The notes beneath the pieces were generated by a model that was given only the letters and a program-made list of their open reading frames with translations, was not told the DNA's origin and searched no databases. Shown here in pieces: positions 323-27,811 of a DNA stretch of 64,000 nucleotides. The stretch's first letter is position 1. Every line of letters starts with the position of its first letter. The translations under genes and the position numbers were made by a program. Source of the DNA: an uncultured Desulfurococcaceae archaeon (lineage in GTDB: Archaea > Thermoproteota > Thermoprotei_A > Sulfolobales > Desulfurococcaceae); NCBI GenBank assembly GCA_964480805.1, contig CAYZRH010000004.1:1749-65748 (forward strand). The letters run 5' to 3'.

Positions 323-2227
323 TTAGTCTCTTTCATAGCTTATTAGAGCTGGTTTTGTATCAACTATTAATAGTTTATCTCCAATATTTAGTATACTATA
401 GTGTTTTGGCAAGTTTGCTACAGCTAATTTTATAGCGTTTATAGTACTCTGTAAGGTATATCCAGTTATACTACGTGCTATATAGTCTAGGTTTCTATGT
501 TCACGTATGTTGAATACTGTCCTAATGTATGTATTAAGTATTACTGACTCATTAACATCTAGTGGTTGTTGTACAATAACTATAAGGCATAGACCATACT
601 TACGGCTCTCCATTAGAAGACGGGATATGAGTGCTTTACTACGTGTTCTACGGAACAAGTGGTGTGCTTCATCAACAACAATAGCTGTTCTACGATAACC
701 CATTTGGTACATAGCATTAATGATCTTGTATAATAGTGTGTCTAGATAAAGTGCTCTAGCTTGATCAGATGGTAGTGTAGCTAGTAGTATGATTGTTGGC
801 TTACTAAGTAGTTCTGTCAAACTAATCCTTGTTTCTAAGAACACGTTTGAAAGAAGCATTCTAATATAAGGTCTAATCCTCTTTAACAAAGCTCTATACT
901 GATCACTGGGGCTAGTCTCTATTAGGTCGTCAAGAGTCCTTAATACATCATAGAATGTTGGAGCGGGGATACTCCATGTACTCTCATTATCTTCTAGAAT
1001 ACCTTTCCTCCTATAAGTCTCTATAATAATCTCTTCAACTGTATTCCTCTGTATATAGCCTAGACTGAAAATAGACTGTATGATATCAGCAAGCTCTATA
1101 GCACGTTGTCTTGGAGAACGCCCCTCTAGGTCGAGGGGGTTTATAGCTGCTTTCTCTGCATCAAGTATGTTTACTTCTCCTCCAAGATACTCAACTAGAT
1201 CAAGGTATTCGTTATGATGGTCTATTATGAGGAAGTTTACTCCATGGTTTCTATATAACTGGTATATTATTGTTTTAGCTAGAGAAGACTTACCTGTACC
1301 ACTAGCTCCAAATATTGATATATGTGGATTAGGGTTGCTATACGGGTCTATTGTCACTGGTTCTACATGTTTCCTCCAATACCATGTCTTACCCTTACTC
1401 GACCCAATTAATGGTTCTTGATTGATCTCTCTATACATATTTACTGGTATATTGTATTCTAGTATAGCTTTTGATAATCCAATAAATACTCCTTTACCAG
1501 CAACCTTCTCTCTATAACCTACTAGTGTAGTAAGTACTGGGTATAGTGGAGTAGTTATCCATGAGAATGGAGCTATTATAGCTAATGTTATTGGTATTAT
1601 TAGGGTCTTTGCACTAACAATAATCATTAGTGGTATAGATATTAGAATATTTATGAATACTCCATAGATGTATAGAGAAGCTCTAACTGGTAGTATTAGA
1701 TGTAGTGTATTCAAGTAGTCTAGAATATATAGTATAAAACCTGTAATTGTGAATAGCAGTGCAGTATTTGATAAGCTATTTAATGTATCTATCTTAGTGT
1801 TTTTTAGAGATATTAGATAGTTTAACAGCTCTTCAGTAACTCTTCTATGAGAGAACATGTTATACATTGTATATAGTATTAGTGGAGCTATCATTGATGG
1901 TATTATAATAGTTGGTAGTCCTAGAAAGAGTATATCTCCTAAACATCCTCCAATACTCTTCCATAGATATGTTAGAGAGTTTGCTACTAAGAATATGTAG
2001 AGTAGGGTTAGTATAAAAGATCTTGTTGTAGAGATCACTATTAATGTCATAGTGAATGGTATAAAGAATACTATAGAAAAGTATATGAATAAATAGGTTA
2101 TGTCTAGACTAGCTATATTAGTTATTGATAAAGCTAGTATATCATAGTATCTACTAACTGTATAAAAGAGCACTATATGTAGTATAAATAGTGTAGATAC
2201 TATAGCTATCCTCCTATTAGCATCCAT
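323..2227 (-). CDS. membrane-anchored HerA/FtsK-superfamily (DUF87-like) P-loop ATPase
   Basis: 634-aa ORF. N-terminal ~250 aa is a run of hydrophobic helices (roughly 7-8 TM by eye). C-terminal half has Walker A FGASGTGKSS, Walker B AIVVDEAHHLF (DEAH-type as in HerA) and LIVIVQQPLDV. Confidence 0.7.
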   Translation of the reverse strand: MDANRRIAIVSTLFILHIVLFYTVSRYYDILALSITNIASLDITYLFIYFSIVFFIPFTMTLIVISTTRSFILTLLYIFLVANSLTYLWKSIGGCLGDILFLGLPTIIIPSMIAPLILYTMYNMFSHRRVTEELLNYLISLKNTKIDTLNSLSNTALLFTITGFILYILDYLNTLHLILPVRASLYIYGVFINILISIPLMIIVSAKTLIIPITLAIIAPFSWITTPLYPVLTTLVGYREKVAGKGVFIGLSKAILEYNIPVNMYREINQEPLIGSSKGKTWYWRKHVEPVTIDPYSNPNPHISIFGASGTGKSSLAKTIIYQLYRNHGVNFLIIDHHNEYLDLVEYLGGEVNILDAEKAAINPLDLEGRSPRQRAIELADIIQSIFSLGYIQRNTVEEIIIETYRRKGILEDNESTWSIPAPTFYDVLRTLDDLIETSPSDQYRALLKRIRPYIRMLLSNVFLETRISLTELLSKPTIILLATLPSDQARALYLDTLLYKIINAMYQMGYRRTAIVVDEAHHLFRRTRSKALISRLLMESRKYGLCLIVIVQQPLDVNESVILNTYIRTVFNIREHRNLDYIARSITGYTLQSTINAIKLAVANLPKHYSILNIGDKLLIVDTKPALISYERD

Positions 2228-5285: not shown

Positions 5286-6398
5286 TTGCTATTTGATGTA
5301 AATCCTAAAACAAGGCTCAAAGATCTATTTGACCGTGAGAAAGAGTTTAATGAGCTTAAAGAAGCGTTAGAGCTTAGTGAGAGGTTAATAGTTATTTATG
5401 GAGTTAGGAGAGTGGGTAAGACAAGTTTGCTAAGAGCTAGTATGTATGAGCTTAAATATCCACATTTACTAGTTGATGTCCGTGAAGTATATGAGGAACA
5501 TGGTTTTATATCTAGGAGTTATCTCTATAGGCAAATGGCTAGATACTTTACTGAGAATATGAGTTTCTTTGAAAGGATAGGTTTTAAACTAAAAGACTTG
5601 TTAAAGTATGTGAAGGTGTTTTATATAAGTGGTACTGGTGTTGAAGTAGATATAACTGTTGATGAAAGCATAACTGATTTACTTAAACACTTTGATAACT
5701 GGGCTAAGAGAAATAATACTAGATTTGTAATAGCTTTTGATGAGGCACAGTATCTACGTTTTTCAGGAATTATTAAGTTTGATGGAGTCTTTGCATGGGC
5801 TATTGATAATCTGGAAAACTTATCTATTATACTAACTGGTAGTGAAGTAGGTGTTTTAAGAGACTTTCTTAAACTAGATAATCCAGAAGCACCATTATAT
5901 GGAAGATACTATAGAGAGATAGTACTTGAGAAATTCACGATTGAACAAGGTATAGAGTTTCTAAGACAAGGATTTAAGGAATTAGGATGTAGTGTATCTA
6001 ATCAAGAACTTATGGAAGTTGTTGATAAACTAGATGGGATACCTGGATGGCTAACTCTATACGGATACTATCGTGGAGTGAGAAATTTAGGTCATAAAGA
6101 TGCCTTAGAAAAGGTTTTTGATATAGCATCTAAACTAGTTATGAAGGAGTTAGAGAAGGTAATAGCTCCTTCAAGACATAGGTATTTAGCTATACTAGAG
6201 GCAATAGCTCGTGGAGCTTCTAGATGGGTGGATATAAAGTCTTATGTGGAGTTTCGTACAGGAACTAGAATAGCTGATAGAAATTTCTCAAATCTACTTA
6301 AAAAACTTGTTAAGTACTCTATAGTTGAAAAGACTGATGATAAGTATAGGATATCTGATCCACTAGTACGCTATGCTATGGAGAGTCTTAAACACTAA
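5286..6398 (+). CDS. archaeal ATPase family protein (AAA-type P-loop NTPase with C-terminal winged-helix, Arch_ATPase/DUF234-like)
   Basis: 370-aa ORF with TTG start. Walker A GVRRVGKTSLL, Walker B FVIAFDEAQYL, C-terminal wHTH-like RYLAILEAIARGASRWVDIKSYVE. This architecture matches the family expanded in hyperthermophilic archaea. Confidence 0.75.
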   Translation: MLFDVNPKTRLKDLFDREKEFNELKEALELSERLIVIYGVRRVGKTSLLRASMYELKYPHLLVDVREVYEEHGFISRSYLYRQMARYFTENMSFFERIGFKLKDLLKYVKVFYISGTGVEVDITVDESITDLLKHFDNWAKRNNTRFVIAFDEAQYLRFSGIIKFDGVFAWAIDNLENLSIILTGSEVGVLRDFLKLDNPEAPLYGRYYREIVLEKFTIEQGIEFLRQGFKELGCSVSNQELMEVVDKLDGIPGWLTLYGYYRGVRNLGHKDALEKVFDIASKLVMKELEKVIAPSRHRYLAILEAIARGASRWVDIKSYVEFRTGTRIADRNFSNLLKKLVKYSIVEKTDDKYRISDPLVRYAMESLKH

Positions 6399-6449
6399 AT
6401 GTATGCAATATATACTGTTAAGCTTTCCTAAATATTGGAGAAGAGAGTT

Positions 6450-8405
6450 CTATGGAGATATAATACCCATTGAACGGAATGATTTAATAATATCTTCTCT
6501 CTTAACACGTGTAGACCTCCTCCAAGCATCAACACGGTTAGTCAGTAACGGTACTACAACTCTTTCAACAAGCATTTCAGCTATTGGACATACCTCTATA
6601 CATATCCTACAGTTTATACATGGTAGACTAGGTATGGGTCCATAGTTAGACAACTTGATCCTTTTTTGTGGACACCATATCATACAGCTACCACACTTTA
6701 CACATCCATGTATCCTATAGATTATCTTTAACATATCTACAACATCCTCAAATCCTTTCTCATTAAACAACTTATATTTTAGATAATTATCTTTAACAAG
6801 GATCTCTGAATCATTGGATCTTATAATCCATCCACTATCTTCTCTAGAGAGACCAAGCTTTAACATTTCAACATTACCTATAAACGCTTGATCAGCATCT
6901 ATAGGTATAAGCCTTTTATTAAATAGTACTGTAGTATACTCTCCTTCTCTAAACACTTTTGTAAAAACTAGTCCAATACCATTTAACAGCCTAGCTCTAT
7001 ACTCATCAACCCAGTTAGCACTATAACTAGGTAGTTTAACAACAAGTCTATACTTAGCAGTAGCTGGTGTAAGCCATCTCCATAAACCATAGTGTATCCA
7101 CTCAATTGGTTGGTTAAGACGCTTCCTCCAATCCTCTAGTCTATCCATCCACTTACTCCACAGTCTTGGATGGTTTCTCTTAACCTCCTTAAACTCGGCT
7201 AGTGTACTTGATGGACATAAGTAGCATCCAAGTCTCTCATAACCTAGTTCATAGAGTTTATTATAGGGTAGTCTATACTTGAATATGTAGAGCCATATAT
7301 GTAGTTGACTCCACTCCTGTATAGGTGTTATACTGAGGAGATGGGGTATCCAGCGGTTTCTCCAAACACGAGGGCTACGTGCACGATCAAGTGATTCAAA
7401 AGCACGTTGTCCAACAATATTTAATGCACCACTACTCCACATCCTACGAGACACACGGGCTAGTGGTACAAGCTTAGCTATCTTACAACACCATCTATAG
7501 TCCTTGCCAGGCGGTCCAAAGACATCTAGTCCATTCCAGAAAGAGTCTCCAGCATTAGCAACTATTTTCTCTAAACCATACTTCTCTGCAACATAGTCTA
7601 CATTCTCTATAGTCTCTGGCAACTCTAGACCAGTATTGTTGAATAATAGTTTAGCATCTCCAAGTGTCTCAAGTGTTAAATGGAGTGCTACAAGACTATC
7701 CTTACCGCCAGAGTATGATACAACAACTTCCTTTCCAACCTTAGAAGCCATGGAGTATAGGAATGCTTTAGCACGAGACTCAAAGTAGTATATACCATAG
7801 TTATTGTGTTTAAGAACATCATCTATAGAAGCAGGTTTACAGCCAGCCTCCCTAGGCTCTATACGTACACGATAAGTCTTAGAAACAATAAGTCTCCCAC
7901 CTAGATTCTCTGCAACACCCTTAACAACACCATTCCTATCAACAACAACTACTTGGCGAGAACTACTAGAATAGTTCTCTCTAATAACCATCTTCTCACG
8001 TATAAATCCGTTAACAACAACCTTATCTACAAGGTCGTCTTCAATAGCAAGCTTTGCACCAGTATAGTTAAGACGATACCTCCACTTACTACGAAATGGG
8101 TCATAGTATAGTTGTCCAACAACATTACCACATGATACAACCTCCCACATCTGATCCCAGTGTGGAACCTTGTTAAATAAGATAAACTGGTTTCTAAAGA
8201 ACCTATCATATACTGTTAATGAGCCAAACTCGTATAGTATAGCCTCTCTAAGCTTCTCATAGTCTCTTAAAAAAACTGGACGGGCATCACCAGGTTCTGT
8301 AAGCTTTAGTTTGAAAACAACATCCTCTCTATCTGGAGGAGGCTTTAGTATTGGAACATTATACTCTGGATCCCAGTATATCTTAGCAGATACTGGCCAT
8401 ATCAT
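6450..8405 (-). CDS. PAPS-reductase/PP-loop ATP-pyrophosphatase family protein with C-terminal 2x[4Fe-4S] ferredoxin domain
   Basis: 651-aa ORF. PP-loop VVVSYSGGKDSLVALH in the centre. C-terminal cysteine clusters CVKCGSCMIWCP and CINCRICIEVCP. Confidence 0.7.
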   Translation of the reverse strand: MIWPVSAKIYWDPEYNVPILKPPPDREDVVFKLKLTEPGDARPVFLRDYEKLREAILYEFGSLTVYDRFFRNQFILFNKVPHWDQMWEVVSCGNVVGQLYYDPFRSKWRYRLNYTGAKLAIEDDLVDKVVVNGFIREKMVIRENYSSSSRQVVVVDRNGVVKGVAENLGGRLIVSKTYRVRIEPREAGCKPASIDDVLKHNNYGIYYFESRAKAFLYSMASKVGKEVVVSYSGGKDSLVALHLTLETLGDAKLLFNNTGLELPETIENVDYVAEKYGLEKIVANAGDSFWNGLDVFGPPGKDYRWCCKIAKLVPLARVSRRMWSSGALNIVGQRAFESLDRARSPRVWRNRWIPHLLSITPIQEWSQLHIWLYIFKYRLPYNKLYELGYERLGCYLCPSSTLAEFKEVKRNHPRLWSKWMDRLEDWRKRLNQPIEWIHYGLWRWLTPATAKYRLVVKLPSYSANWVDEYRARLLNGIGLVFTKVFREGEYTTVLFNKRLIPIDADQAFIGNVEMLKLGLSREDSGWIIRSNDSEILVKDNYLKYKLFNEKGFEDVVDMLKIIYRIHGCVKCGSCMIWCPQKRIKLSNYGPIPSLPCINCRICIEVCPIAEMLVERVVVPLLTNRVDAWRRSTRVKREDIIKSFRSMGIISP

Positions 8406-8638: not shown

Positions 8639-11600
8639 ATGGTTGTGAATAGACCTGCATCTATATTATTACTAATACTCCTACTATTCAACTCGTTTGC
8701 TATAATAACAACACCGTTAACAGCTAGAGCTTCAGCAGTAAATGTTAGCCAAGTAACAGAGTATCATGACATATGGGTATGTGCTCAAGAAGGCTGTATG
8801 CCCAACGCTCCTGGCGATAAAAACCTAACAGCACCCAATGGTGATCTATACGATATAACTCTAGGAAATACTAGTGAACTTATAGTATACTTCAACTTAT
8901 CAGTGCTGTCAGAGGCGGGTATAGACCTAGGTTCAGTATACTTAGCTATTTCACCTGGTTTACCAAAAATAGCATTCTTAACATCAAGAACTAATCCAAA
9001 AACTATATCGTTACTAGTGAATGGATTCTATGACTCTGATCCATACATTAACACAACATTTGTTGAATATGTCTCTATAACTAGAGTGTCAGCAGATTTA
9101 TCAATGGCTAAGATAAAGTTCAAGACATTAAAAGGTATATTTCTCGAAACAGCTGATAGTAGCCCTGGCCCCAACGATAACCCGCCAACTTATGTTGAGG
9201 ATCTATATGGAGTAGGGCTATCCTTTGTAGTTGAGGATATAACGCCAGATAGAGCTGAGAGTGATAACGTATTTACTATGTATGAAGTACCCAATGTTGA
9301 TGCTCAATTACAGTCAACAGACATATCTATAACTGTTACAAATGATGTCATAAAGAAATATCATGATACAATTATTGTAGTTGATTACTCGGTTCTCTTT
9401 GATAAAGTAAATGATTTGCTGAATAGCTATGGACTTGTAGATATTATTGGAACAGTAAACTTAACAAGATCAGATATCTATACTGAAGTATATATGTATA
9501 ATCTATACAACACTAGTGAAAGACACTTACTAGTCTACGGGAACGACCTTGGATGGACTACTGATGGAGGTCCATACTTCTCAACTGTTAGTGCTTACAC
9601 GGATTCCGATGAGAAGATACTGTATGTGGATGCTGATGATTTACTAGATTTCGCTCCTACCGAAATCTCTGCTGAAGAGTACCTTACATCACACTATGGC
9701 TTCTACGTATTTATTAACTTTAGCTATGCCGTACTTAACTGTACATTCTCATTAAATATAACATTTGATCTAGAGGCTGATAGCGCTACAGCTAGTGGTA
9801 CTAAGAAGATCTTGAAGGTTAAGGCTTCTGAGGAAGTTACAGAGATCCCTGATCTATGGGCTGATCCAGCTGAGCTTAATCCTAATGACAACTTAACTAT
9901 CGTGTTACACCATCTACCAGAGGATGCTGATATAACTAAGGTTGTATTGAATAGGAGTGGCTACGTTATTGAGATACCTAAGGATGAACTTACAATAACA
10001 TATCTAGGTGATGGAGACTTTGAAGTGAATCTTACAATACCTGATGGTGAATGGGGCGGTGCTGATACTGAAGTTAAGGTGATAGTTGATACAACACGCT
10101 ATGTTAATGAGCATCCAGACTGTTACGTTGAGTACATAGCTGTTTATCCATACATTATAACCTACATTATAACTAATGAGACAGCTTTCGCTGAAGAGAA
10201 TGCTACTGGCTATAATGCTACATTCATATTTGGTAATAAGACTGCTCCTGGAGACTATGTTATGGTTAAAGGTTTCGGCTTTATAACACCAACTAGTGAA
10301 GGCGAGGAGCTTACAAGTTATGTAAAAGCATTTGTTGACTCAAATAGGATACTAGTACTACATGCTATGGATAAGGGCAACGGATCTATAATTGTGTTGC
10401 TTAAGATGAACTACACAACTGGAGGAGTAGTACCGCCTGGAACCTATACACTAAACATATCTGTTGATCCAGTGCACAACTATGCTACAGCTGGTTTAGA
10501 AGTAGCTATTGAGGACAAGTTGAAGAAGATGTTTATAGACCCCGTACCATTCTATAACGGCACACTATACAAGATCTACCATATCAAACTAACAGATCCA
10601 TTCCAGCTATACTACCCACTAATAGGTAGTGAACCTGGAGACCACTTTGACTGGGCTCATATACCAAGTTGGTTCAACCATTCATTTGAGTTTATAAGCT
10701 TCCCAGATACAAGTGTTGATATAGACTTGCGCAACAAAGACTATAGTATAGACTTCTCATGGCTAACGCTATCGCTAACACATGGATATGGGCTATGGCA
10801 TACTGGTAACGCTCTTGTAGACCAGTACCTACCTTATGGAGACTATACATGGCTTGTTAATGGCGAAGAGCCTAAGGCTATTGATGGTAGGACTATATTC
10901 TATGTACGTATACAGATTGATATAGACTACGACTCGCCAATAACTGATAGAGTTGGCTGCCGTGGACAGAACATTACAATATGTGCTATTGGACTACCGC
11001 CTAATGAGGATGTAAACGTAACCATACAGTATACAGTCTATGCTAATGGTACAAACTACTATAGTATATATCCAGGGTTGACTAGAGAGTATTGGGAAGG
11101 CGAGTTCAATGTAACAATAACTAGTGATGAAAATGGTACTGGCTGTGTAGAATTCAATACAACAGACTACTATCCAACAGACTACGTAACTAATGCTACA
11201 CATGAAGTCGCTATTAAGAAGGGATGGGTTGGTACAAATGTTAAGGAGTACTTATTCTTTGAGTTTAATGCTACAATTACTGGAGTTAGTAATGAGACAG
11301 ACTCATTTGAGTTAAAGACTCATGACACACAGCTAGACTTCTCAATGATATTCCATGTACATATACTATACAACATTACTGTAATAGAGCATGTAACAGT
11401 AACGGTACCACGTGAAAACGCTACAATAACAGTACCAGAAGTACTACTGCCTGGAGACACTGTTACTGTACAAGTGTTCATACACAAGAAGTCGGTCTAC
11501 GACGCCTATGTTGATCCAGCTTCACTACTAGAGATCTCTGATGTAACAATTGATGGATATATGTTCTGGGAGGCATGGGTACGCCTAGTAGACCCATTAA

Positions 11601-14600
11601 CTAATACACCAGTACTAACAGTATATGGAAACTCAACACCAAGTAGTCACCCAGAATGGCTAATAGCAGAAGATGTTGATGGTGATGGCGAGCTAGAGGT
11701 ATGGTGGGCTATACCAGTAGATACTTCACCACTAGGGCTTGTAGGCGTTGATAAAACTTATCGTGTTGATGTAAGGATTAGATGGAGGTTTGCCAACTAT
11801 TCATTAACACCAGAGATTAATGTTAGTGATGAACTATGCCATATCTATATGAACTACACTAGCTTTATACCATTCAATGTATCAGAGACATACTGGTACA
11901 TAGGCGGCGACCACCAGCTTGTAACAATACTTGGTATACTAGAGTGGAAACTTGACAAGATAATTAACGATACTGTATGGCTTAAAGCTAAAGTTAATGA
12001 TACTTACAACTACCTAACAATCAATATAACACAGTTCCTAGAATACATCAACAACACCGTTGTAGAGATACGTGGAGATGTAGCCATTATAAAGGCTGAT
12101 GTAGCTATCATTAAAGCCAATGTATCAACACTAATAGATCTTGCTAGAGAAGCACATGTAAAGCTAGACCTCATACTAGGTAATCTAACAGTTATAGAGT
12201 ATAAGATCGAGAATGTCAATGAGACCATACACCTAAGGCTAGATGAGATTAATGCAACTCTAGAAGAGATTCTATGGTGGCTACAGGATATCAAGTATGA
12301 ACTAGAAGCATACTATGCAGAACTTGAGTGGAAGCTTGACGAGATCAATGAGACACTACATGTTATGAATGATACCTTACTCTGGAAGCTAGACGCTATT
12401 AACGAGAGCATTACGCTACGCATTATTATGGCTAAAGAACAGCTTGAAGAACTTATAAAGGCTGTTAATGAAACCATATTCCGTAGACTTGATAGATTAG
12501 AAGGATCTATTGAAGCATATATTGATGATAAGGTAGTCTATATTGAAGGATTACTGCATGAGGTAGTACATAATATTACAACAAATGTAACAATAGAGAT
12601 ACACAATGCTAGAGACGAGGTAATTACTAAACTAGAAGACATACTAACTAACCTAACAATACAGTTAACAACGCTAAAGAACGATCTAAACGCTAGCATA
12701 ACCTATTACGGAGACACACTCATAGCTAAGATAGAATCAACTAATACATCACTACACCTAGTTATTAGAGAATGTTGTATGAACCTCACCAACCTGATAA
12801 AAGCTGTTAACACAACAATCCTAGACAGACTAGACGATATGGAGAGCAGTCTAGAAGCCTATATAGACATGAAAGCGTACGAACTAGAGATCTGTATAAC
12901 AGATGCAGCTAACGATGTTAAAGAGAACATAACTATAGAGATTGGTGAAGCTAAAGACGATATCCTTAAAGCTATTGAGGACATGTTGACACGTATAACA
13001 AGTAGACTAGACATGCTTGAAGAACACATAAACGCTAGTATAGAGATTGCTAAAGATGAGACAATACTATTCATAAATGATAGCAAGAACGCTATAATAG
13101 CACGTATAGACAGCTGTTGTACAGAACTTAAAGACCTTATCATAACAAAGGCAAGCGATATCCTGGCTAGACTAGATGTATTAGAAGCTAATGTTGTTGC
13201 TAACATAACTGCTGCTAAGAACGATCTAGATATATTGATTAGAACTGTTAACTCAACACTATATGCTAAGATAGAGGATGAAGCAGACCGTATAGTAGGT
13301 ATACTAAACAATGTCTACACCAGCCTATCAGACAAGCTAGACAATGTCAACGCCAGCATATCAGCTCTAATAACATACTATGGAGACATGCTAGAGCTTA
13401 AACTAGACTACATCAACACTACACTACATGGGGTTAACGCTACACTGTACTTCAAGATAGAGTCTGCTACAGCCAGTATACTAAACGCTATAAACAACAT
13501 GCATACAGACCTATTGAATAAGCTGTATGAACTAGGCAATAACCTAACAGTACTCATAAACGATAGATCGGCTGAGATAAAGGTGCTTGTAGAGAACAAG
13601 GCTTCAGAAATAGTGTCTAACCTGTCACTAAAGATTGATGATGCGTCAAACAATATAATTAGTGAACTCAAGGCATTCGTATCAGCAAAGATCTCTGAAG
13701 TAATTGGAAATATAACGGATCTAAAGGAGAATGTATCAATAACCATCAAGGCCTACGCAGATATGTTTGAAGCTAAACTAGACAGTATTAACAGCACCAT
13801 ACACGTTAAATTAGATAACTACTACACAGCATTAAGAGACCTCTTAATAGCTATAAACACCAGCATCTTTAACAGACTTGATGAGCTTGAAACTGACTTA
13901 ACACTACTTGTTAACGAGAAGACAGCTTATCTTGAAGGAGTAATATATAATGTAAGAGACGAGATACTAACTAACTTAACCATAGAGATACATGATGCTA
14001 GAGAAGACATAGTATCAGAGCTAACAAGCTATGCTACACAGATCCTTAACAGAATAGACCTTGCTGAATCTAATGTTGTTGCTAACATAACATCCTATGG
14101 TGATAGAATAGTAGCTGATATAGCTTCAGCTAATGCTACCATACACTTAAAGATTGAAGAGTGTTGTACAGAGCTCAAGGACCTTATAACAACAAAGGCT
14201 AGTGATATACTAACTAGAATAGCTGAGCTACAGGACAATGTAACAATAACTATTAAGACTTATGCTGACATGTTTGAAGCTAAGATTGATAGTGTTAACA
14301 GTACAATACATCTAAAGCTTGACAACTACTATAGTGCACTAATGAGCTTCCTAACATCTATGAATGCAAGCTTGTTCAGTAGACTTGATGAACTAGAAAC
14401 CGATCTAACGCTACTCATTAATGAGAAGACAGCATATCTTGAAGGAGTAATATATAATGTAAGAGACGAGATACTAACTAATGTAACAATAGAGTTAACT
14501 AATGCTAAGGAGGAGATACTAGCAGCACTAGAGGCATCAACACTAGCTATACTAGCTAGACTTGACGAGCTTGAATCTAATGTTATAGCTAACATAACAT

Positions 14601-15658
14601 ACTATGCTGGAGTACTAGAAGCAGATATTATAAGCACTAATATATCACTACATGCTAAACTAGATGCGTACTATGTATCACTTGTAGACCTACTACTAGC
14701 TATTAATGAGAGCATATTCAGCAGACTTGATGAACTAGAAGGCAACCTAGTGGCATTTATTGAATACGAGACTTCAAGACTAGAGGGAGACCTATACGAT
14801 GTTGAAGACAACATAATCTATGAATTAACAATAGAGATTGATAATGCTCGTGAAGAACTATCATCACTAATAACCACTGAGAGTATGGCTATACAGTCAC
14901 TCATTACACTAAAAGCTGATGAGCTAAAGGCGTTTGTGAATGAGAGTAGATTAGAGATTCTAGCATCAATCAATGATGCTAAATTAACAATCTTAACTAG
15001 ACTAGACCATCTAGAAATAGTACTTAACGACACCCGTGCAACGATAATGACAGAGCTATTTAGTATAGAGACAACGCTAGACAACATAATAGACTTAATC
15101 AACACAGCAGCTGATGAACTAGGTGTTAAAGTTGACAGCTTATCAGAATTTGTTGGAGACGTTAACGAGTCAATATATGGACTAGTACTAACTGTTGGTG
15201 ACAACATCAAGGTAACAATTACTGGTAAAGCGGATGATATAATGAACCTTGTAAGTAGCTCAAGCGATGAACTAAAGAGTCTTATTGGCGAGAAAGCAAG
15301 CGATCTAGAATCACTTGTTGGAGATAAGTTTAGTGACTTATCAGATCTAGTAACTAGCAAGACTGATGAACTAAGTTCAGCCCTAGACACTGCTAAGAGC
15401 GATCTAGAGACATTAATAACAGATAAGTTTAGTGAGCTATCAGGTAAACTAGATGATACAAAGACTGCTTTAAGTAGTGATATATCAAGTGCACAGACAA
15501 GTCTAAGCAGTAGATTAGATGAGAAATCAGACGACGTATCACAGAAAGTAGACTCTGTAGACAGTAAGTTAGTAACCTACAGCCTTGTAACACTAATACT
15601 ACTAGTCGTTGTCATTGGACTAGTAGGATATAGTGTAATAGCATTTAGAAGAGGCTAA
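8639..15658 (+). CDS. giant (2339 aa) N-glycosylated surface protein: signal peptide, beta-rich head, ~1200-aa coiled-coil stalk, C-terminal TM anchor (tetrabrachion-like architecture)
   Basis: N-terminal signal-like MVVNRPASILLLILLLFNSFAIITTPLTARA. Dozens of N-x-S/T sequons. From about nt 11940 the sequence is a continuous heptad-like helical repeat (LEWKLDKIINDT..., RLDELETDLTLL...). C-terminal hydrophobic anchor LVTYSLVTLILLVVVIGLVGYSVIAF followed by RRG. Confidence 0.85.
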   Translation: MVVNRPASILLLILLLFNSFAIITTPLTARASAVNVSQVTEYHDIWVCAQEGCMPNAPGDKNLTAPNGDLYDITLGNTSELIVYFNLSVLSEAGIDLGSVYLAISPGLPKIAFLTSRTNPKTISLLVNGFYDSDPYINTTFVEYVSITRVSADLSMAKIKFKTLKGIFLETADSSPGPNDNPPTYVEDLYGVGLSFVVEDITPDRAESDNVFTMYEVPNVDAQLQSTDISITVTNDVIKKYHDTIIVVDYSVLFDKVNDLLNSYGLVDIIGTVNLTRSDIYTEVYMYNLYNTSERHLLVYGNDLGWTTDGGPYFSTVSAYTDSDEKILYVDADDLLDFAPTEISAEEYLTSHYGFYVFINFSYAVLNCTFSLNITFDLEADSATASGTKKILKVKASEEVTEIPDLWADPAELNPNDNLTIVLHHLPEDADITKVVLNRSGYVIEIPKDELTITYLGDGDFEVNLTIPDGEWGGADTEVKVIVDTTRYVNEHPDCYVEYIAVYPYIITYIITNETAFAEENATGYNATFIFGNKTAPGDYVMVKGFGFITPTSEGEELTSYVKAFVDSNRILVLHAMDKGNGSIIVLLKMNYTTGGVVPPGTYTLNISVDPVHNYATAGLEVAIEDKLKKMFIDPVPFYNGTLYKIYHIKLTDPFQLYYPLIGSEPGDHFDWAHIPSWFNHSFEFISFPDTSVDIDLRNKDYSIDFSWLTLSLTHGYGLWHTGNALVDQYLPYGDYTWLVNGEEPKAIDGRTIFYVRIQIDIDYDSPITDRVGCRGQNITICAIGLPPNEDVNVTIQYTVYANGTNYYSIYPGLTREYWEGEFNVTITSDENGTGCVEFNTTDYYPTDYVTNATHEVAIKKGWVGTNVKEYLFFEFNATITGVSNETDSFELKTHDTQLDFSMIFHVHILYNITVIEHVTVTVPRENATITVPEVLLPGDTVTVQVFIHKKSVYDAYVDPASLLEISDVTIDGYMFWEAWVRLVDPLTNTPVLTVYGNSTPSSHPEWLIAEDVDGDGELEVWWAIPVDTSPLGLVGVDKTYRVDVRIRWRFANYSLTPEINVSDELCHIYMNYTSFIPFNVSETYWYIGGDHQLVTILGILEWKLDKIINDTVWLKAKVNDTYNYLTINITQFLEYINNTVVEIRGDVAIIKADVAIIKANVSTLIDLAREAHVKLDLILGNLTVIEYKIENVNETIHLRLDEINATLEEILWWLQDIKYELEAYYAELEWKLDEINETLHVMNDTLLWKLDAINESITLRIIMAKEQLEELIKAVNETIFRRLDRLEGSIEAYIDDKVVYIEGLLHEVVHNITTNVTIEIHNARDEVITKLEDILTNLTIQLTTLKNDLNASITYYGDTLIAKIESTNTSLHLVIRECCMNLTNLIKAVNTTILDRLDDMESSLEAYIDMKAYELEICITDAANDVKENITIEIGEAKDDILKAIEDMLTRITSRLDMLEEHINASIEIAKDETILFINDSKNAIIARIDSCCTELKDLIITKASDILARLDVLEANVVANITAAKNDLDILIRTVNSTLYAKIEDEADRIVGILNNVYTSLSDKLDNVNASISALITYYGDMLELKLDYINTTLHGVNATLYFKIESATASILNAINNMHTDLLNKLYELGNNLTVLINDRSAEIKVLVENKASEIVSNLSLKIDDASNNIISELKAFVSAKISEVIGNITDLKENVSITIKAYADMFEAKLDSINSTIHVKLDNYYTALRDLLIAINTSIFNRLDELETDLTLLVNEKTAYLEGVIYNVRDEILTNLTIEIHDAREDIVSELTSYATQILNRIDLAESNVVANITSYGDRIVADIASANATIHLKIEECCTELKDLITTKASDILTRIAELQDNVTITIKTYADMFEAKIDSVNSTIHLKLDNYYSALMSFLTSMNASLFSRLDELETDLTLLINEKTAYLEGVIYNVRDEILTNVTIELTNAKEEILAALEASTLAILARLDELESNVIANITYYAGVLEADIISTNISLHAKLDAYYVSLVDLLLAINESIFSRLDELEGNLVAFIEYETSRLEGDLYDVEDNIIYELTIEIDNAREELSSLITTESMAIQSLITLKADELKAFVNESRLEILASINDAKLTILTRLDHLEIVLNDTRATIMTELFSIETTLDNIIDLINTAADELGVKVDSLSEFVGDVNESIYGLVLTVGDNIKVTITGKADDIMNLVSSSSDELKSLIGEKASDLESLVGDKFSDLSDLVTSKTDELSSALDTAKSDLETLITDKFSELSGKLDDTKTALSSDISSAQTSLSSRLDEKSDDVSQKVDSVDSKLVTYSLVTLILLVVVIGLVGYSVIAFRRG
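13741..14754 (+). repeat. two tandem ~507-nt (169-codon) units inside the stalk-coding region; older degenerate copies extend upstream to ~12300
   Basis: TIKAYADMFEAKLDSINSTIHVKLDNYY...EKTAYLEGVIYNVRDEILTNLTIE (from 13741) matches TIKTYADMFEAKIDSVNSTIHLKLDNYY...EKTAYLEGVIYNVRDEILTNVTIE (from ~14248). An identical 47-nt run tatcttgaaggagtaatatataatgtaagagacgagatactaactaa occurs at 13928 and 14435. Confidence 0.85.
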
Positions 15659-15792: not shown

Positions 15793-16197
15793 TTGTTGAA
15801 GGCTGTATCAAGCTATCTATCGCTAGTGGTAGCACTACTGGTTATAACAATGGTTTCAACAGCATCTATTATAGCTATTAATAGTATGGAGCGTACTATT
15901 CAGAAGTCTATAAAGGATGTTGGTAGAGAGGCTATTGTATATAGGAGGGTATGTCTTAAGAATAGTTCTATAGTAGTTATAAAGTTGTTAGAAAATACTA
16001 TAATTCAAGACATAGTTGTTGTTGATCAAGTTAATAACAGTTTATCTAGACTAAGTAGTAGAGACCTATCTATAAATACTTCATGTAGATTCCTTGATAG
16101 AGAACTACAGTGTAGTGTAGGGGATCTAGTGGTTATTATAGTGCCTAGAGACTACAGAGTTTTACTAATAACTAATAGAGGTGTCTATATTGTCTAG
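15793..16197 (+). CDS. small N-terminally anchored secreted/membrane protein (possible pilin-like class III signal)
   Basis: 134-aa ORF, TTG start after GGGAGG. N-terminus MLKAVSSYLSLVVALLVITMVSTASIIAI (short charged n-region, K-A, then a ~22-aa hydrophobic helix). Overlaps the next gene by 17 nt. Confidence 0.55.
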   Translation: MLKAVSSYLSLVVALLVITMVSTASIIAINSMERTIQKSIKDVGREAIVYRRVCLKNSSIVVIKLLENTIIQDIVVVDQVNNSLSRLSSRDLSINTSCRFLDRELQCSVGDLVVIIVPRDYRVLLITNRGVYIV

Positions 16198-18307
16198 AGC
16201 ATTAACAAGTTATCCACTAGCAATTACAGCTATAGTATCTATCATAGCTGTACTAACGGTCTCTCTAACAATACTAGATACAATGTTTAGAGTATCTAGA
16301 GAAGTAGTTAGTATTAAGGGTAACTCCTTTATAGAAGACATAGACTACACGATATATAAGGAGGATCTCTACATACTATCTAGCTCTAATAAAATATACT
16401 ATGAGATAATACTCTATCCAAACAATACAATAGAGACTATAGCTCTAAACACAACACCCTACTCTAAAGGCTTTCTCCACGGACCGGTTAAGATACCATG
16501 TAACCCTAGTGCATCTATAGCTGTAGTTGATGGAGAGAGTTTGGAAGTCGTTGATGTAATAGAGACTATGGATATAGCAAGTAACCTAGTATATAGTAGC
16601 AATAGTGTGAAACCACCAAGTCTATACATGAATATTTTAGAAAATAATCTAGAAACAATAGACCAGTTTGTTAAAGGTTCATACGTGTTTCAAGAGTATA
16701 GACCATTTAAAGACAATGTATTTACAACTTATTTAGAACCTGGAACTAGCTATCTAATAGACTTTAACGGTGTCATCTATAGAGATGGATATGTAAAACC
16801 TATACCCTTACTAAATGATACAATAGAGATTAACTATGAAATGTTTAGTGAGAATGTTAGTAGAATACTTAGTAATGGTTCAAGGGTTTATGGTAGATAC
16901 AGTGTTCTATACAACATATCTCTAAACACACGATTAGTTGACAACAAGACTATAGGCTTTGAAAGCTTTAGTGATACAGGGTGGGCTATACCAGGTACAT
17001 TATATAGAGTTGTTGAGGAACACACTATATACAATGGTTTAGTACAACACTATGGATTATACTCCCTACTATATGATCTAAACCATACAATAGACTATAT
17101 ACTCATACACGGTTTTAAAACAGGGAAGCTATATTGTGTACCCTTAAACGTGACATATAGTATAGAGTTACTTAATCAAACAAGTGTTATAGAAGTAGAG
17201 AACTGGACTATAGAGATAAACTCTTCACTAATACCCACCTTCCCTCTATACAGGGAGAGATTGAACAAGTCTATAGATGCTATACTATCCACTGGTAATG
17301 AAGCAATCCTGAAACTAGAGGTCACATACGACATACCCATACCTTATGTAAGTGATATATTTTACATAAACATTTCAGCACACATAAATGATCCTTTAAA
17401 AGAAGGCTCTGTAGAGATGATATATGGTGGGCTAGTAAGGCTTAAACTAGATAATAGTAGTCTAATAGATTATAGATTATACTCTAATAGTAGTATCATA
17501 GTGAATTCTACAATAGAATACCCTAGTCCTAACTATACACTATCTATAATAATAAGTGGTTCTAGTAGACAAGACCTCCTATATAATGGTTCTATATTAT
17601 TAGATGTTCTAGGAATGGGTGATATTAATAGAGTAGAGTATATGTCTCCTGATATAATTCTAGAACCTGAGCCATTTCTAGTTATAAACAGTATTATAAG
17701 TGTTAATGGATATAGTATAGTATATGGCAACATATCAGATAATACTATATGGATATACTCTGAAGACTCTAGAGTGTATATAAACTATACAATACCACCA
17801 GCTATACGTCTTAACAATACATACATCTCTGTAGATGATGTAGCCTATATTCTTAGTGATATAGCTAGTAACATTAGTACTGTAGTTGTTGGAGACAAGG
17901 TATTCCACGGATCTAGCGTCTATGTACAGAACATGTATTGTTTAGAAGAAACTGTTTTTAGAGAACCAGTTCTAGTGGTTGAAACAAGTGTTCCTATAGA
18001 AGTGGTTGTAGAACATATAGATGGCTCTATAGTTGAAAGTGTTTTCTATAGAAGTGGTTCTCTAGAGTTAGAGGATAAACTAGTTTCTAGAATAAGTGTT
18101 TATTTAGTAAATAATGTTTCAATAATCTACCGTAGTTGTAGAGTAGGGAAGTTCTTCATATACTATAATGGTGGGTTAGAGGTAGGTGTTTTAGATAATA
18201 GTATAGTGTATGTTATGGGTTATCCAGTAGCTAGGATAGTTTTTAAAGACATAGAGGTTTATACCATACTTTCACCCATCTCTCTCCTACTTAAAAACCC
18301 TCCATGA
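16181..18307 (+). CDS. large N-terminally anchored, sequon-rich extracellular protein
   Basis: 708-aa ORF. N-terminus MSILSRALTSYPLAITAIVSIIAVLTVSLTIL shares the (K/R)-A-x-(S/T)-S-Y-x-L motif with the upstream 134-aa protein. Many N-x-S/T sites. No family recognised. Confidence 0.6.
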   Translation: MSILSRALTSYPLAITAIVSIIAVLTVSLTILDTMFRVSREVVSIKGNSFIEDIDYTIYKEDLYILSSSNKIYYEIILYPNNTIETIALNTTPYSKGFLHGPVKIPCNPSASIAVVDGESLEVVDVIETMDIASNLVYSSNSVKPPSLYMNILENNLETIDQFVKGSYVFQEYRPFKDNVFTTYLEPGTSYLIDFNGVIYRDGYVKPIPLLNDTIEINYEMFSENVSRILSNGSRVYGRYSVLYNISLNTRLVDNKTIGFESFSDTGWAIPGTLYRVVEEHTIYNGLVQHYGLYSLLYDLNHTIDYILIHGFKTGKLYCVPLNVTYSIELLNQTSVIEVENWTIEINSSLIPTFPLYRERLNKSIDAILSTGNEAILKLEVTYDIPIPYVSDIFYINISAHINDPLKEGSVEMIYGGLVRLKLDNSSLIDYRLYSNSSIIVNSTIEYPSPNYTLSIIISGSSRQDLLYNGSILLDVLGMGDINRVEYMSPDIILEPEPFLVINSIISVNGYSIVYGNISDNTIWIYSEDSRVYINYTIPPAIRLNNTYISVDDVAYILSDIASNISTVVVGDKVFHGSSVYVQNMYCLEETVFREPVLVVETSVPIEVVVEHIDGSIVESVFYRSGSLELEDKLVSRISVYLVNNVSIIYRSCRVGKFFIYYNGGLEVGVLDNSIVYVMGYPVARIVFKDIEVYTILSPISLLLKNPP

Positions 18308-18616: not shown

Positions 18617-20026
18617 ATGGAGTATGAGTTCCTACTTACTGCTTTCTACTTGTCAGTACTCTCATACTATCTAGGTACACTATTCTATATGATACCGCTA
18701 CCATTCTACTCTATTAAGAAGTGGGCTCCAACACTAATGGTTGACGGCGTTTTTTCTGCTACACTAGTATTTACATACACAATCATACTAGCTTTAATAG
18801 ACTATATTGGAGGGGTACTGGGTAGTAACTGGACATCATTCTATCTATGGATTGGATTTAAAACAGGTATTGTAGCTACACTATTGACAATACTACGTAT
18901 TATAGGTATGACGCTCTCTATGAGTGGTCTACAGTTTCTAGCAAACAGTATAATATCATCACTTATATCAATACTAACATATGTAATACTATCACTACTT
19001 ATCATAACAGTAGTTGCAATGATTATAACAAGCTATGGAGCAAGACTACTAGCACTAGGTATACTACTGCATGCAGTACCATTTCGTCTTACAAGAGCTA
19101 GTGGAGCAATGATGATCTCTATAGTCATTGTATTCTCTATAGGTCTACCGTTAATGCCTGCTTTTGTAGAATATGTTTCAGCACCACTTATAGTGCCCGG
19201 GCTAGTTGTTACAGACTATGGGTTAGCATATGTTGTTGTAAACATAACTGATACAGTAGGTAACAGTATACCATACACCTTGTTTGAAGCATATCGTCTA
19301 GATAACAATAGATTACTGGCTAGATACATAGGTAGTAGAGAGGGATACATAGATACGTGTGATCCAGATAAGGGGTTGCCAAGTAGTAGAAGCTATGGAG
19401 TAGTTGTAGAAGTTGGTGGAGCTAGACTAGTTGATACAGTTAATCCAGTAGAGGACTATAAACAGTTAAACAACACAGTCTATAGACTAGATCTTAGATA
19501 CAATAAGCTATTATCAATAGGTGTTACTAGGTTCATATACTTAAACAACTCTATACTAAAATCACTGACAATTAGCCAAAACCACTACACACTAGAACTA
19601 GATGTAGACCAGGAGACAGCTATCTATATAGTAGTACAGACAAGTGATACGGTAACAGTGTATATTGATGGCTATGGAAGGAGTCCTGATAGAACAGACT
19701 ACTATACATGGTATGGTGTAGAACTATACTCTCATACATACACACTAGATACTGGAAGCCATGTAGTTGACTTATACATAGTCTATGGTGATACAGAGAC
19801 ACCGGAAATAGATGAAGTCTACTACCTACGTGATGTAGCAAATATTACACTAACAAGGCCTATAACACTGATAAACCCAATAGCATACCTTATATTCAAC
19901 CTCCTTATAGCACCACTAGCCTATATAGCAATACTATTCTCAACATCATACGCACTTGCTAGACTACTTGGCGGTACACGCCCTAGTATCCTATACGCAG
20001 TCACTATGGGGAGGAGGATTGGGTAA
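18617..20026 (+). CDS. polytopic membrane protein with large extracellular domain; candidate CedA/VirB6-like channel component
   Basis: 469 aa. About 6 hydrophobic helices in the first 190 aa. A ~220-aa soluble, sequon-bearing domain follows (NITDTVGN..., NNTVYRL...). Final TM LIFNLLIAPLAYIAILFSTSYAL. Confidence 0.5.
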   Translation: MEYEFLLTAFYLSVLSYYLGTLFYMIPLPFYSIKKWAPTLMVDGVFSATLVFTYTIILALIDYIGGVLGSNWTSFYLWIGFKTGIVATLLTILRIIGMTLSMSGLQFLANSIISSLISILTYVILSLLIITVVAMIITSYGARLLALGILLHAVPFRLTRASGAMMISIVIVFSIGLPLMPAFVEYVSAPLIVPGLVVTDYGLAYVVVNITDTVGNSIPYTLFEAYRLDNNRLLARYIGSREGYIDTCDPDKGLPSSRSYGVVVEVGGARLVDTVNPVEDYKQLNNTVYRLDLRYNKLLSIGVTRFIYLNNSILKSLTISQNHYTLELDVDQETAIYIVVQTSDTVTVYIDGYGRSPDRTDYYTWYGVELYSHTYTLDTGSHVVDLYIVYGDTETPEIDEVYYLRDVANITLTRPITLINPIAYLIFNLLIAPLAYIAILFSTSYALARLLGGTRPSILYAVTMGRRIG

Positions 20027-20193
20027 TGGATAGAGTTGAGAAGATAATATGGGTTATGATAGCTATAATAGCAGTTGTATCAATAGTTTCATCACCTAAA
20101 CCACTAACTATAATCCTAAACACGTTGTTCATAACCATCATAGTCACACTAAGGCTTGTCTTAAATAGAGTTGGTGAGAGATATGAAGTTTAA
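20026..20193 (+). CDS. unlisted 55-aa two-TM hairpin protein (CedA2/VirB3-position)
   Basis: Manual translation: MDRVEKIIWVMIAIIAVVSIVSSPKPLTIILNTLFITIIVTLRLVLNRVGERYEV. The ATG overlaps the upstream stop (TAATG). Its stop at 20191-20193 overlaps the ATPase ATG at 20183 by 11 nt. Below the ORF-track size cutoff. Confidence 0.55.
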   Translation: MDRVEKIIWVMIAIIAVVSIVSSPKPLTIILNTLFITIIVTLRLVLNRVGERYEV

Positions 20194-26881: not shown

Positions 26882-27811
26882 ATGATTGATAAGGATGATC
26901 CGGTGGTTAAGAAGGTATACGAGATCTATGGACTAGCTATTGAAGAGTCTAAACCAGTTAGGAATCCAGAGCTTATGATAAGGTTTTTAAGAGAAAAATA
27001 TAGGCTACTAGTAAAACCACGTATAGTATACTTAACAATAGCTGCATTCCTAAACAATAGACCAGTATTATTCGAGGGACCGCCAGGTACTGGTAAAACA
27101 GAGATTGGTGAAGCAATACTAACTCTATGGGCTGGCAAGACAGCATTCATATTACCATGTAGTGAAAACTATGATGAATACCGTGTTATAGGAGACTTCC
27201 ACCCCGTAATGGCTATAAGTAAGGGTTTTAATGAGGAAAGCTTTATACCAAGGCCATTGCTTGCAGCATTGATTTTGGATGCTGGCATACTTATTGACGA
27301 GGTACGTAGGAGTAGTGAGGAGTTCCAAAACCTTCTTCTAGATATTATTGATAAGAGACGTATTATTGTTCCAGAACTTAAGAAGGTTTATAGACAGAAG
27401 GGTATTGGTTTCCAAGTCATACTAACTAGTAACCCAGAGGATATAGCACAGAATGAACTTAGTGATGCTTTTCTAAGACGTGTTGTTAGGATAAAGTTTA
27501 GTTATCCAAGTATAGAAGAGGAGTTGGAGATTCTGAAGCTAAGGCTTAGAGACAACCTAGACTATATACCAAAACCACTAGTTAAGAAAATGCTTAATGT
27601 AGTCAATGTTTTAAGAACTAAGACAGTATATAAGCCAGGTCCATCAGACACTGTTTCATGGGGTATACTTGCTGTTAAAATAGCTATGTCTCGTGGTGAT
27701 AATAGAGCATCTATAGATGACCTAGTTAGTTCTGGTGAAGCAGTCCTTATTAAGAATGTTGAGGATGAAGAAGTTGTTAGAGAAATACTCTATAGAGAGT
27801 TTAAGAAGTAG
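26882..27811 (+). CDS. MoxR-like AAA+ ATPase
   Basis: 309 aa. Walker A LFEGPPGTGKTEIGEAI, Walker B GILIDEVRRSSEEFQNLLLDII, then LTSNPED...DAFLRRV. This is the single-AAA MoxR/RavA-type layout. Confidence 0.8.
   Translation: MIDKDDPVVKKVYEIYGLAIEESKPVRNPELMIRFLREKYRLLVKPRIVYLTIAAFLNNRPVLFEGPPGTGKTEIGEAILTLWAGKTAFILPCSENYDEYRVIGDFHPVMAISKGFNEESFIPRPLLAALILDAGILIDEVRRSSEEFQNLLLDIIDKRRIIVPELKKVYRQKGIGFQVILTSNPEDIAQNELSDAFLRRVVRIKFSYPSIEEELEILKLRLRDNLDYIPKPLVKKMLNVVNVLRTKTVYKPGPSDTVSWGILAVKIAMSRGDNRASIDDLVSSGEAVLIKNVEDEEVVREILYREFKK

Follow-up and report, generated by a model that had tools for sequence, protein, structure and literature searches.

We consider it likely that the gene at positions 8639..15658 (+) of a 64,000-nucleotide (nt) stretch of contig CAYZRH010000004.1 (the window) is the tetrabrachion ortholog of an uncultured Desulfurococcaceae archaeon. 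Its product would be a surface layer (S-layer) glycoprotein that forms a tetrameric, membrane-anchored rod carrying a canopy. The original prediction, made from the letters of the window, had called the product tetrabrachion-like. This description was correct but understated, as the protein is a true homolog and the positional ortholog of Staphylothermus marinus tetrabrachion (E 4e-82, shared flanking genes). It represents an extreme of the known tetrabrachion family and not a new kind of protein or system.

Homologs were collected with an exhaustive HMMER/phmmer search of 1.84 billion representative proteins using the head (amino acids (aa) 1-1100) as query. Only 14 proteins were retrieved in total. 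One of them, P0004 (1524 aa), is S. marinus tetrabrachion itself, which matched the head with a phmmer E value of 4.2e-82 and 33% identity over aa 262-1100, and which carries the sequence of PDB 1FE6/1YBK at aa 1237-1287 as well as Pfam domain PF11401. The closest relative, P0002 (2127 aa), was found with an E value of 1e-233. Homology extends into the stalk, since aa 1062-1522 of tetrabrachion align with aa 1864-2338 of the window protein, the C-terminal ~475 aa of the stalk (E 2e-53). Furthermore, the RHCC segment known from PDB 1FE6 is present. PF11401 was not reported when the whole 2339-aa protein was scanned, but the isolated segment aa 2040-2125 passed the cut-off of 27 bits with a score of 28.1 (E 2e-6); the match falls into two parts, separated by an 11-aa insert. 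A scan of genome contigs with the head alignment revealed five loci in metagenome-assembled genomes (MAGs), all titled Desulfurococcaceae archaeon; the same scan with a single protein query found nothing.

Other searches gave no additional assignment. A word-indexed search with the whole protein returned the self-match only, probably because coiled-coil words saturated the candidate list. The NCBIfam scan of the window tetrabrachion gave 0 matches. Against Pfam, the whole protein produced near-hits only, namely Apolipoprotein (89.1 versus a cut-off of 90) and Baculo_PEP_C. Both were interpreted as artefacts of 11-residue amphipathic repeats. PDB sequence searches with the whole protein and with a stalk piece yielded apolipoprotein noise only.

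The chromosomal setting was compared between the window and four further loci (L001, L002, which is the S. marinus sequence, L003 and L005), and the gene order turned out to be identical. A VirB4/CedD-like ATPase gene (-), a Lhr helicase gene (+) and a PAPS-reductase-like gene (-) precede tetrabrachion (+), which is followed by a gene for 105-142 aa, a gene for 670-708 aa, cedA1, cedA, cedA2, cedB, an RNA methyltransferase gene and the ribosomal protein genes L3 and L4. As this is also the order at the S. marinus locus, the window gene is the positional ortholog of tetrabrachion. The L3 protein of the window is 81% identical to that of L001, 76% to that of L005 and 66% to that of the S. marinus locus, which indicates that the window organism belongs to a different genus-level lineage of Desulfurococcaceae.

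The open reading frame (ORF) of 2339 aa was confirmed and corresponds to a protein of 262 kDa before glycosylation with an isoelectric point of 4.3. The database copy comprises 2337 aa and starts two codons downstream. The following features were assigned along the gene.

8639..15658 (+), tetrabrachion ortholog precursor of 2339 aa, from the ORF, homology to S. marinus tetrabrachion and synteny
8639..8731 (+), putative Sec-type signal peptide, aa 1-31, ending in ...TARA before SA, read by eye; alternative GTG start at 8645
8732..11926 (+), head or 'arm', aa 32-1096, a chain of immunoglobulin (Ig)-like beta-sandwiches with 38 sequons (N-x-S/T), presumed to form the lattice, from an alignment with six homolog heads, AlphaFold2 and Foldseek
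11927..14776 (+), distal length-variable stalk, aa 1097-2046, 950 aa or ~142 nm of hendecad coiled coil, from periodicity and module analysis
12773..12778 (+), first CC doublet, aa 1379-1380, RECCMNL, in a core-straddling d/e-like position, from sequence and seam geometry
13115..13120 (+), second CC doublet, aa 1493-1494, DSCCTEL, from sequence and seam geometry
14162..14167 (+), third CC doublet, aa 1842-1843, EECCTEL, from sequence and seam geometry
14201..14542 (+), 114-aa module (aa 1855-1968) that P0002, the closest relative, lacks, from the alignment
14777..14992 (+), ortholog of the RHCC fragment, aa 2047-2118, 39% identical in BLASTP with one exact 11-residue insertion
15239..15568 (+), membrane-proximal Ser/Asp-rich 11-residue repeats in hendecad register, aa 2201-2310, from the repeat layout; source of the Pfam Apolipoprotein near-hit
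15569..15655 (+), predicted C-terminal transmembrane anchor and cytoplasmic RRG tail, near-identical in P0002 and similar in S. marinus, from sequence reading and alignment

Both termini show the organization expected for an exported, membrane-anchored protein of this family. The hydrophobic, signal-peptide-like N-terminus reads MVVNRPASILLLILLLFNSFAIITTPLTARA with the presumed cleavage site before SA, and the protein ends in LVTLILLVVVIGLVGYSVIAFRRG followed by the stop codon, which by eye is a hydrophobic helix with the basic tail RRG. This anchor can be aligned with the anchors of P0002 and P0004. A signal peptide and a transmembrane anchor followed by RRG had been predicted and are indeed found at the two ends of the 2339-aa ORF.

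The head has a length of ~1065 aa. An AlphaFold2 model based on a seven-sequence alignment (mean pLDDT 73.6) consisted of beta strands nearly throughout, which together with the 38 sequons bears out the prediction of a beta-rich, sequon-dense head of ~1100 aa. Foldseek comparison of the model with the PDB gave chains of immunoglobulin and macroglobulin domains as best matches. A beta-rich, Ig-like head agrees with the beta-rich arms described for tetrabrachion (PMC5744192). The multiple alignment revealed invariant head motifs such as APGDY, VPExxLPGD and EDVDGDG...YRVD. Moreover, the branch-point motif GGDxQ[LI]VT[IV]LG[ILV]LExKLD is conserved with S. marinus. A divergent homolog of 1736 aa, P0011 (L006 798-6008; the same protein in L007 712-5922), carries an inserted von Willebrand A domain in its head, and its stalk is the shortest of the family (317 aa).

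Following the head, the stalk spans aa 1097-2310 (1214 aa). Proline is absent after aa 1078 and glycines are very few. Hydrophobic residues of this region showed a sharp periodicity peak at 3.67 (3.670) residues with a power of 16.5, while 1000 shuffled sequences gave a mean power of 1.4 and a maximum of 3.55. At 3.5 residues the power was ~0.1. A strong peak at 3.67 with almost nothing at 3.5 identifies the stalk repeat as a hendecad (11/3), the hydrophobic periodicity found in a right-handed coiled coil, and rules out a canonical left-handed heptad coiled coil. When the stalk sequence is arranged with 11 residues per line, the a/d/e/h pattern can be seen by eye in ~100 successive lines. The original prediction had described ~1200 aa of heptad- or hendecad-like repeats; the length and the hendecad were correct, the heptad was not. 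Similarly, the region in front of the anchor had been taken for an S/D-rich linker. It is Ser/Asp-rich, but aa ~2201-2310 comprise nine in-register 11-residue repeats (LxxL[IV]xxKxSD). This excludes a disordered linker and makes the region part of the coiled-coil rod.

The distal stalk has a modular structure: successive RLDxLE motifs are separated by 55 and 59 aa in alternation, which yields a 114-aa super-repeat. The youngest internal duplication (aa 1706-1815 versus 1875-1984) shows 69% identity at the protein and 77% at the DNA level, and the 114-aa module missing from P0002 is part of it. The extra stalk length is a result of duplication of 55/59-residue modules. Alignment with the P0002 stalk (58% identical) revealed ten indels of 3, 4, 7, 7, 4, 11, 14, 4, 55 and 114 residues, none of which deviates by more than 0.18 turn from an integral number of 3.667-residue turns. 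The chance of all ten being in phase is ~0.36^10. Such phase-preserving indels are evolutionary evidence for selection on a continuous hydrophobic seam.

The gene derives from a single MAG contig and its stalk is internally repetitive, which could point to an extreme length produced by mis-joined or over-expanded repeats during metagenome assembly. This explanation is extremely improbable. The repeats are old, as even the best pair of stalk DNA repeats is 77% identical across 300 nt, and TRF analysis of the window reported no relevant tandem array in the stalk. Furthermore, reading frame and hendecad phase are unbroken, and the stalk of P0002, which comes from another assembly, measures 999 aa and is colinear apart from the phase-preserving indels.

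Sequons are strongly enriched throughout the protein, with 84 N-x-S/T sites against ~23 expected from composition. The head contains 38 (9.4 +/- 2.7 in shuffled sequences) and the stalk 46 (13.6 +/- 3.3), so that the predicted N-x-S/T sites of the stalk are well supported. Asparagines of 34 of the 46 stalk sequons flank the core at 45-110 degrees from the seam centre; among stalk asparagines outside sequons, 40 of 41 face outward. The protein may be N-glycosylated.

The three CC doublets lie exactly at the predicted nucleotides 12773, 13115 and 14162. They are spaced by 114 and 349 aa and occupy equivalent places in the 114-aa module. With respect to the seam centre, the two cysteines of each doublet are found at +36/-63, +60/-38 and +46/-52 degrees, corresponding to a d/e-like core position. 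Such a core-straddling arrangement makes inter-chain disulfides geometrically plausible, and the doublets might form these or line cavities of the coiled coil. They occur in the motif [IL]-[DE]-x-C-C-x-x-L in most family members, including S. marinus (aa 1118), and are therefore a family trait and not particular to the window protein.

To compare stalk lengths, we measured from the branch-point motif VLG[IL]LExKL to the anchor. The stalks of 12 family members comprise 317, 427, 448, 462 (S. marinus), 496, 526, 598, 740, 758, 797, 999 and 1214 aa. The window stalk is the longest and exceeds that of S. marinus ~2.6 times, in line with the earlier statement that the latter is much shorter. Assuming 0.15 nm per residue, the stalk of S. 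marinus would measure 69 nm and the window stalk ~182 nm if straight. The factor reproduces the published length of the S. marinus stalk, 70 nm (PMC5744192), and the estimate for the window protein is therefore reasonable, as is the earlier expectation of well over 100 nm for a continuous stalk.

Length variation is restricted to one part of the stalk. An RHCC-like segment was located in all 12 members, and it is separated from the anchor by a nearly constant 166-205 aa (25-31 nm). In contrast, the distance from the branch point to this segment varies between 89 and 950 aa (13-142 nm) and accounts for all differences in length. The distal segment of S. marinus comprises 201 aa or 30 nm, which agrees with the published position of the stalk proteases 32 nm from the branch point (PMC5744192). 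RHCC is associated with two proteases (PMC6555900). A constant proximal and a variable distal part place the extra ~750 residues of the window protein distal to the presumed protease-docking height. We tentatively suggest, at somewhat less than even odds, that the stalk acts as a modular ruler of canopy height, in which duplications of 55/59 residues lengthen only the distal part (from 13 to 142 nm) and the RHCC-like, protease-associated segment stays fixed 25-31 nm up. In that case, the S-layer compartment built by the window protein would be the tallest known (~180 nm).

Taken together, the data are best explained by an anchored rod with a canopy. By analogy with S. marinus, the precursor would be exported via its Sec signal peptide and heavily N-glycosylated. 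Four chains are predicted to zip into one parallel, right-handed hendecad coiled-coil rod, which the C-terminal helix would hold in the membrane. At the far end, four Ig-like arms would splay and join their neighbours in a canopy ~180 nm out, and the RHCC-like segment would stand ~30 nm above the membrane.

Several observations weigh against this model. Hydrophobic seam phase shifts near aa 1146-1212, where it rotates, and near aa 2136-2180, where it drops; both zones are candidate hinges that could lower the effective height. The first ~100 stalk residues (aa ~1100-1210) are the only ones near a period of 3.55. Single-chain, single-sequence AlphaFold2 prediction of the stalk was all-helical and, at a pLDDT of 36, uninformative on oligomer state. 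The S. marinus precursor is cleaved into light and heavy chains at Glu700|Gly701 (PMC5744192), LLE|GTLL in P0004 numbering. This site is not conserved in the window protein, where the aligned stretch WLVNGEEPKAID has Glu residues. No gene for a subtilisin-type (Peptidase_S8) protease such as the stalk-bound STABLE protease was found among the scanned ORFs of the window. Finally, with a single contig at hand, the genome may encode a shorter second tetrabrachion paralog elsewhere.

Some of these points would fit an anchored tetramer whose stalk contains hinges or fold-backs, so that the canopy stays far below 180 nm. Besides the two phase-shift zones and the deviating period at the start of the stalk, the AlphaFold2 monomer supports such a structure by breaking the helix into ~20 pieces, at the low pLDDT given above. 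We regard a hinged stalk as unlikely, because 1214 residues lack proline and contain very few glycines, and because the seam phase is smooth from aa ~1234 to ~2150, over ~900 residues. In addition, all indels relative to P0002 are in phase, a constraint expected only for a continuous seam, and for S. marinus the measured length is obtained when the number of residues is multiplied by 0.15 nm.

The extreme stalk length within the family would also fit an accessory role, in which the protein is a long fibre or adhesin (mediating, for instance, the aggregation of cells) and the lattice is made by a different protein. The 64-kb window leaves room for other S-layer candidates elsewhere in the genome. 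We judge this function improbable. The gene occupies the same chromosomal slot as the S. marinus S-layer gene, and its product retains the conserved head, branch point, RHCC-like segment and anchor. Moreover, the exhaustive search retrieved only 14 family members from 1.84 billion representative proteins, and each retrieved locus contains one copy with no sign of a paralog.

A further alternative concerns the genes downstream. The original prediction had proposed that the protein might be a scaffold for the adjacent Ced-like apparatus, and had asked whether orthologues always lie next to this operon. Two genes separate tetrabrachion from cedA1:

15793..16197 (+), p134, small protein with a prepilin-like N-terminus, LKA before VSSYLS, and a hydrophobic helix, found only in tetrabrachion-bearing loci
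16181..18307 (+), p708, protein with 24 sequons, a prepilin-like N-terminus, SRA before LTSYP, and a hydrophobic helix, abutting cedA1, found only in tetrabrachion-bearing loci

As a structural part of Ced DNA import, the protein would serve as scaffold or guide for a CedA1 pilus across a wide pseudo-periplasm. Consistent with this idea, tetrabrachion lies directly upstream of p134-p708-cedA1-cedA-cedA2-cedB in all eight tetrabrachion-bearing loci whose contigs extend downstream. CedA1 of the window passes the NCBIfam cut-off (126.5 versus 100 bits), genes for a CedA-like protein and a CedB-like ATPase follow, and the CedD/VirB4-like ATPase is encoded upstream of tetrabrachion. However, tetrabrachion, p134 and p708 are all missing from four out of four Ced loci of more distant relatives that share this backbone (ATPase, Lhr, (PAPS-reductase-like), cedA1, cedA, ribosomal genes), so that tetrabrachion and Ced do not consistently co-occur across taxa. 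In these loci CedA1 is 54-65% identical to that of the window and L3, where present, 47-55%; one of the CedA1 proteins is named Hyperthermus. Tetrabrachion is therefore not a general Ced component, and Ced does not require it. In addition, the tetrabrachion stop codon is separated from p134 by 134 nt containing T-tracts and A/T-rich boxes, whereas the next six genes abut or overlap, which suggests a separate transcription unit for tetrabrachion. Given also the established S-layer function of tetrabrachion in S. marinus (PMC5744192), a structural role in Ced is very improbable. The adjacency thus holds when seen from tetrabrachion and fails when seen from Ced, and a general link to the Ced apparatus is not supported.

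All Ced loci examined, whether they contain tetrabrachion or not, carry a CedD-like ATPase gene upstream of Lhr. The ancestral locus accordingly appears to have consisted of CedD-like, Lhr, cedA1, cedA, cedA2 and cedB beside ribosomal protein genes. In the simplest reading, a three-gene block of tetrabrachion, p134 and p708 is situated upstream of cedA1 in this ancient Ced locus in one clade only. More speculatively, the co-inherited p134 and p708 might adapt the adjacent Ced pilus machinery to crossing a tall space. A search with p708 found two close relatives only.

Further observations were made on the genes of this locus. The small gene and the ~700-aa gene share the N-terminal consensus sequences K[AS]|[LV]S[NSQ]Y[LI]S and [KR][AG]|[LV][TS]xYP, respectively, each followed by a hydrophobic helix and resembling a class III signal peptide. 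Together the two genes span 14371-16873 in L001, 14760-17139 in L002, 15663-18006 in L003, 15146-17621 in L005, 6139-8491 in L006, 5467-7584 in L010 and 14491-16578 in L011. They evolve fast, with 35% identity between the window and L001 compared with 97% for CedA1. An ORF of 55 aa with two hydrophobic helices at 20026-20193 (+) lies between cedA and cedB and overlaps both. It matches genes of 54-59 aa at the equivalent place in related loci and is likely the CedA2 counterpart. The ATPase gene at 323-2227 (-) encodes a 634-aa protein of the HerA/VirB4 type, for which CedD was the best NCBIfam match (83.8 bits, far under the cut-off of 600); VirB4 also ranked among its best matches, likewise below cut-off. 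Between Lhr and the PAPS-reductase-like gene, the window contains an archaeal ATPase_2 gene with an MCM-type winged-helix C-terminus (5286-6398 (+)) and an ORF of 90 aa (6373-6645 (+)). This pair is absent at that place in L001, L002, L003 and L005 and may be a small insertion. The gene at 6450-8405 (-) codes for a protein of 651 aa that combines a PAPS-reductase domain with a 4Fe-4S ferredoxin domain at the C-terminus, an NCBIfam PRK13795-type 'hypothetical protein'. It is divergently oriented relative to tetrabrachion in all clade members and also present in L013, a Ced locus without tetrabrachion. At 26882-29702 (+), a MoxR-type AAA_5 ATPase and a CoxE-like protein with a von Willebrand A domain are encoded beside the ribosomal-protein gene cluster; the same pair occurs near this cluster in L014 and L016.

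Knowledge of the tetrabrachion family dates back to 1995. Tetrabrachion is a textbook case of extreme protein stability, and its RHCC fragment has found wide use both as a tetramerisation tag and as a nanotube scaffold. S. marinus tetrabrachion (UniProt Q54436; PF11401; PDB 1FE6/1YBK) shares with the window protein head homology, the branch-point motif, a hendecad stalk and the RHCC-like segment, as well as Ser-rich membrane-proximal 11-residue repeats, a basic-ended transmembrane anchor, a stalk CC doublet, dense sequons and the chromosomal neighbours. The two proteins differ in stalk length (1214 versus 462 aa, ~182 versus 70 nm), in the distal segment (950 versus 201 aa) and in the number of CC doublets (three versus one). 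Moreover, the window stalk is free of proline, whereas that of S. marinus contains one at aa 1160; the window protein has an 11-residue insertion in the RHCC-like segment and lacks a conserved Glu700|Gly701 site, and the heads are only ~31-33% identical. P0002, encoded in another uncultured Desulfurococcaceae MAG (GCA_964466845.1, contig CAYXOO010000015.1), is much closer, with ~45% identity in the head and 58% in the stalk, a near-identical anchor, the same locus order and an L3 identity of 81%. Relative to its 999-aa stalk, the window protein adds modules of 55 and 114 aa, inserts of 3-14 aa and one more CC doublet.

Among the papers searched, none described giant tetrabrachion orthologs or a constant-proximal/variable-distal plan. 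The family provides a natural series of 317 to 1214 stalk residues with phase-preserving indels and a fixed membrane-proximal module, and it is a source of long hendecad sequences from nature for use in protein design. It also leads to a testable prediction for the cell envelope, a pseudo-periplasm of ~180 nm compared with 70 nm in S. marinus. The ~180-nm stalk may be the longest continuous right-handed coiled coil known.

Tall S-layers of other design occur in Thermoproteota. In Sulfolobales, the separate stalk protein SlaB holds the lattice ~30 nm above the membrane, and the 'colossal' PySLP of Pyrobaculum, a protein of 292 kDa with a 37-nm stalk of Ig domains, has been called the largest structurally characterised S-layer protein (bioRxiv 10.64898/2026.08.21.746120). 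Both resemble the window protein in architecture by having a membrane-anchored stalk and an Ig-domain lattice well above the membrane. In contrast to PySLP, the window protein, with 262 kDa before glycosylation, uses a single-chain hendecad coiled coil and is predicted to be ~five times taller.

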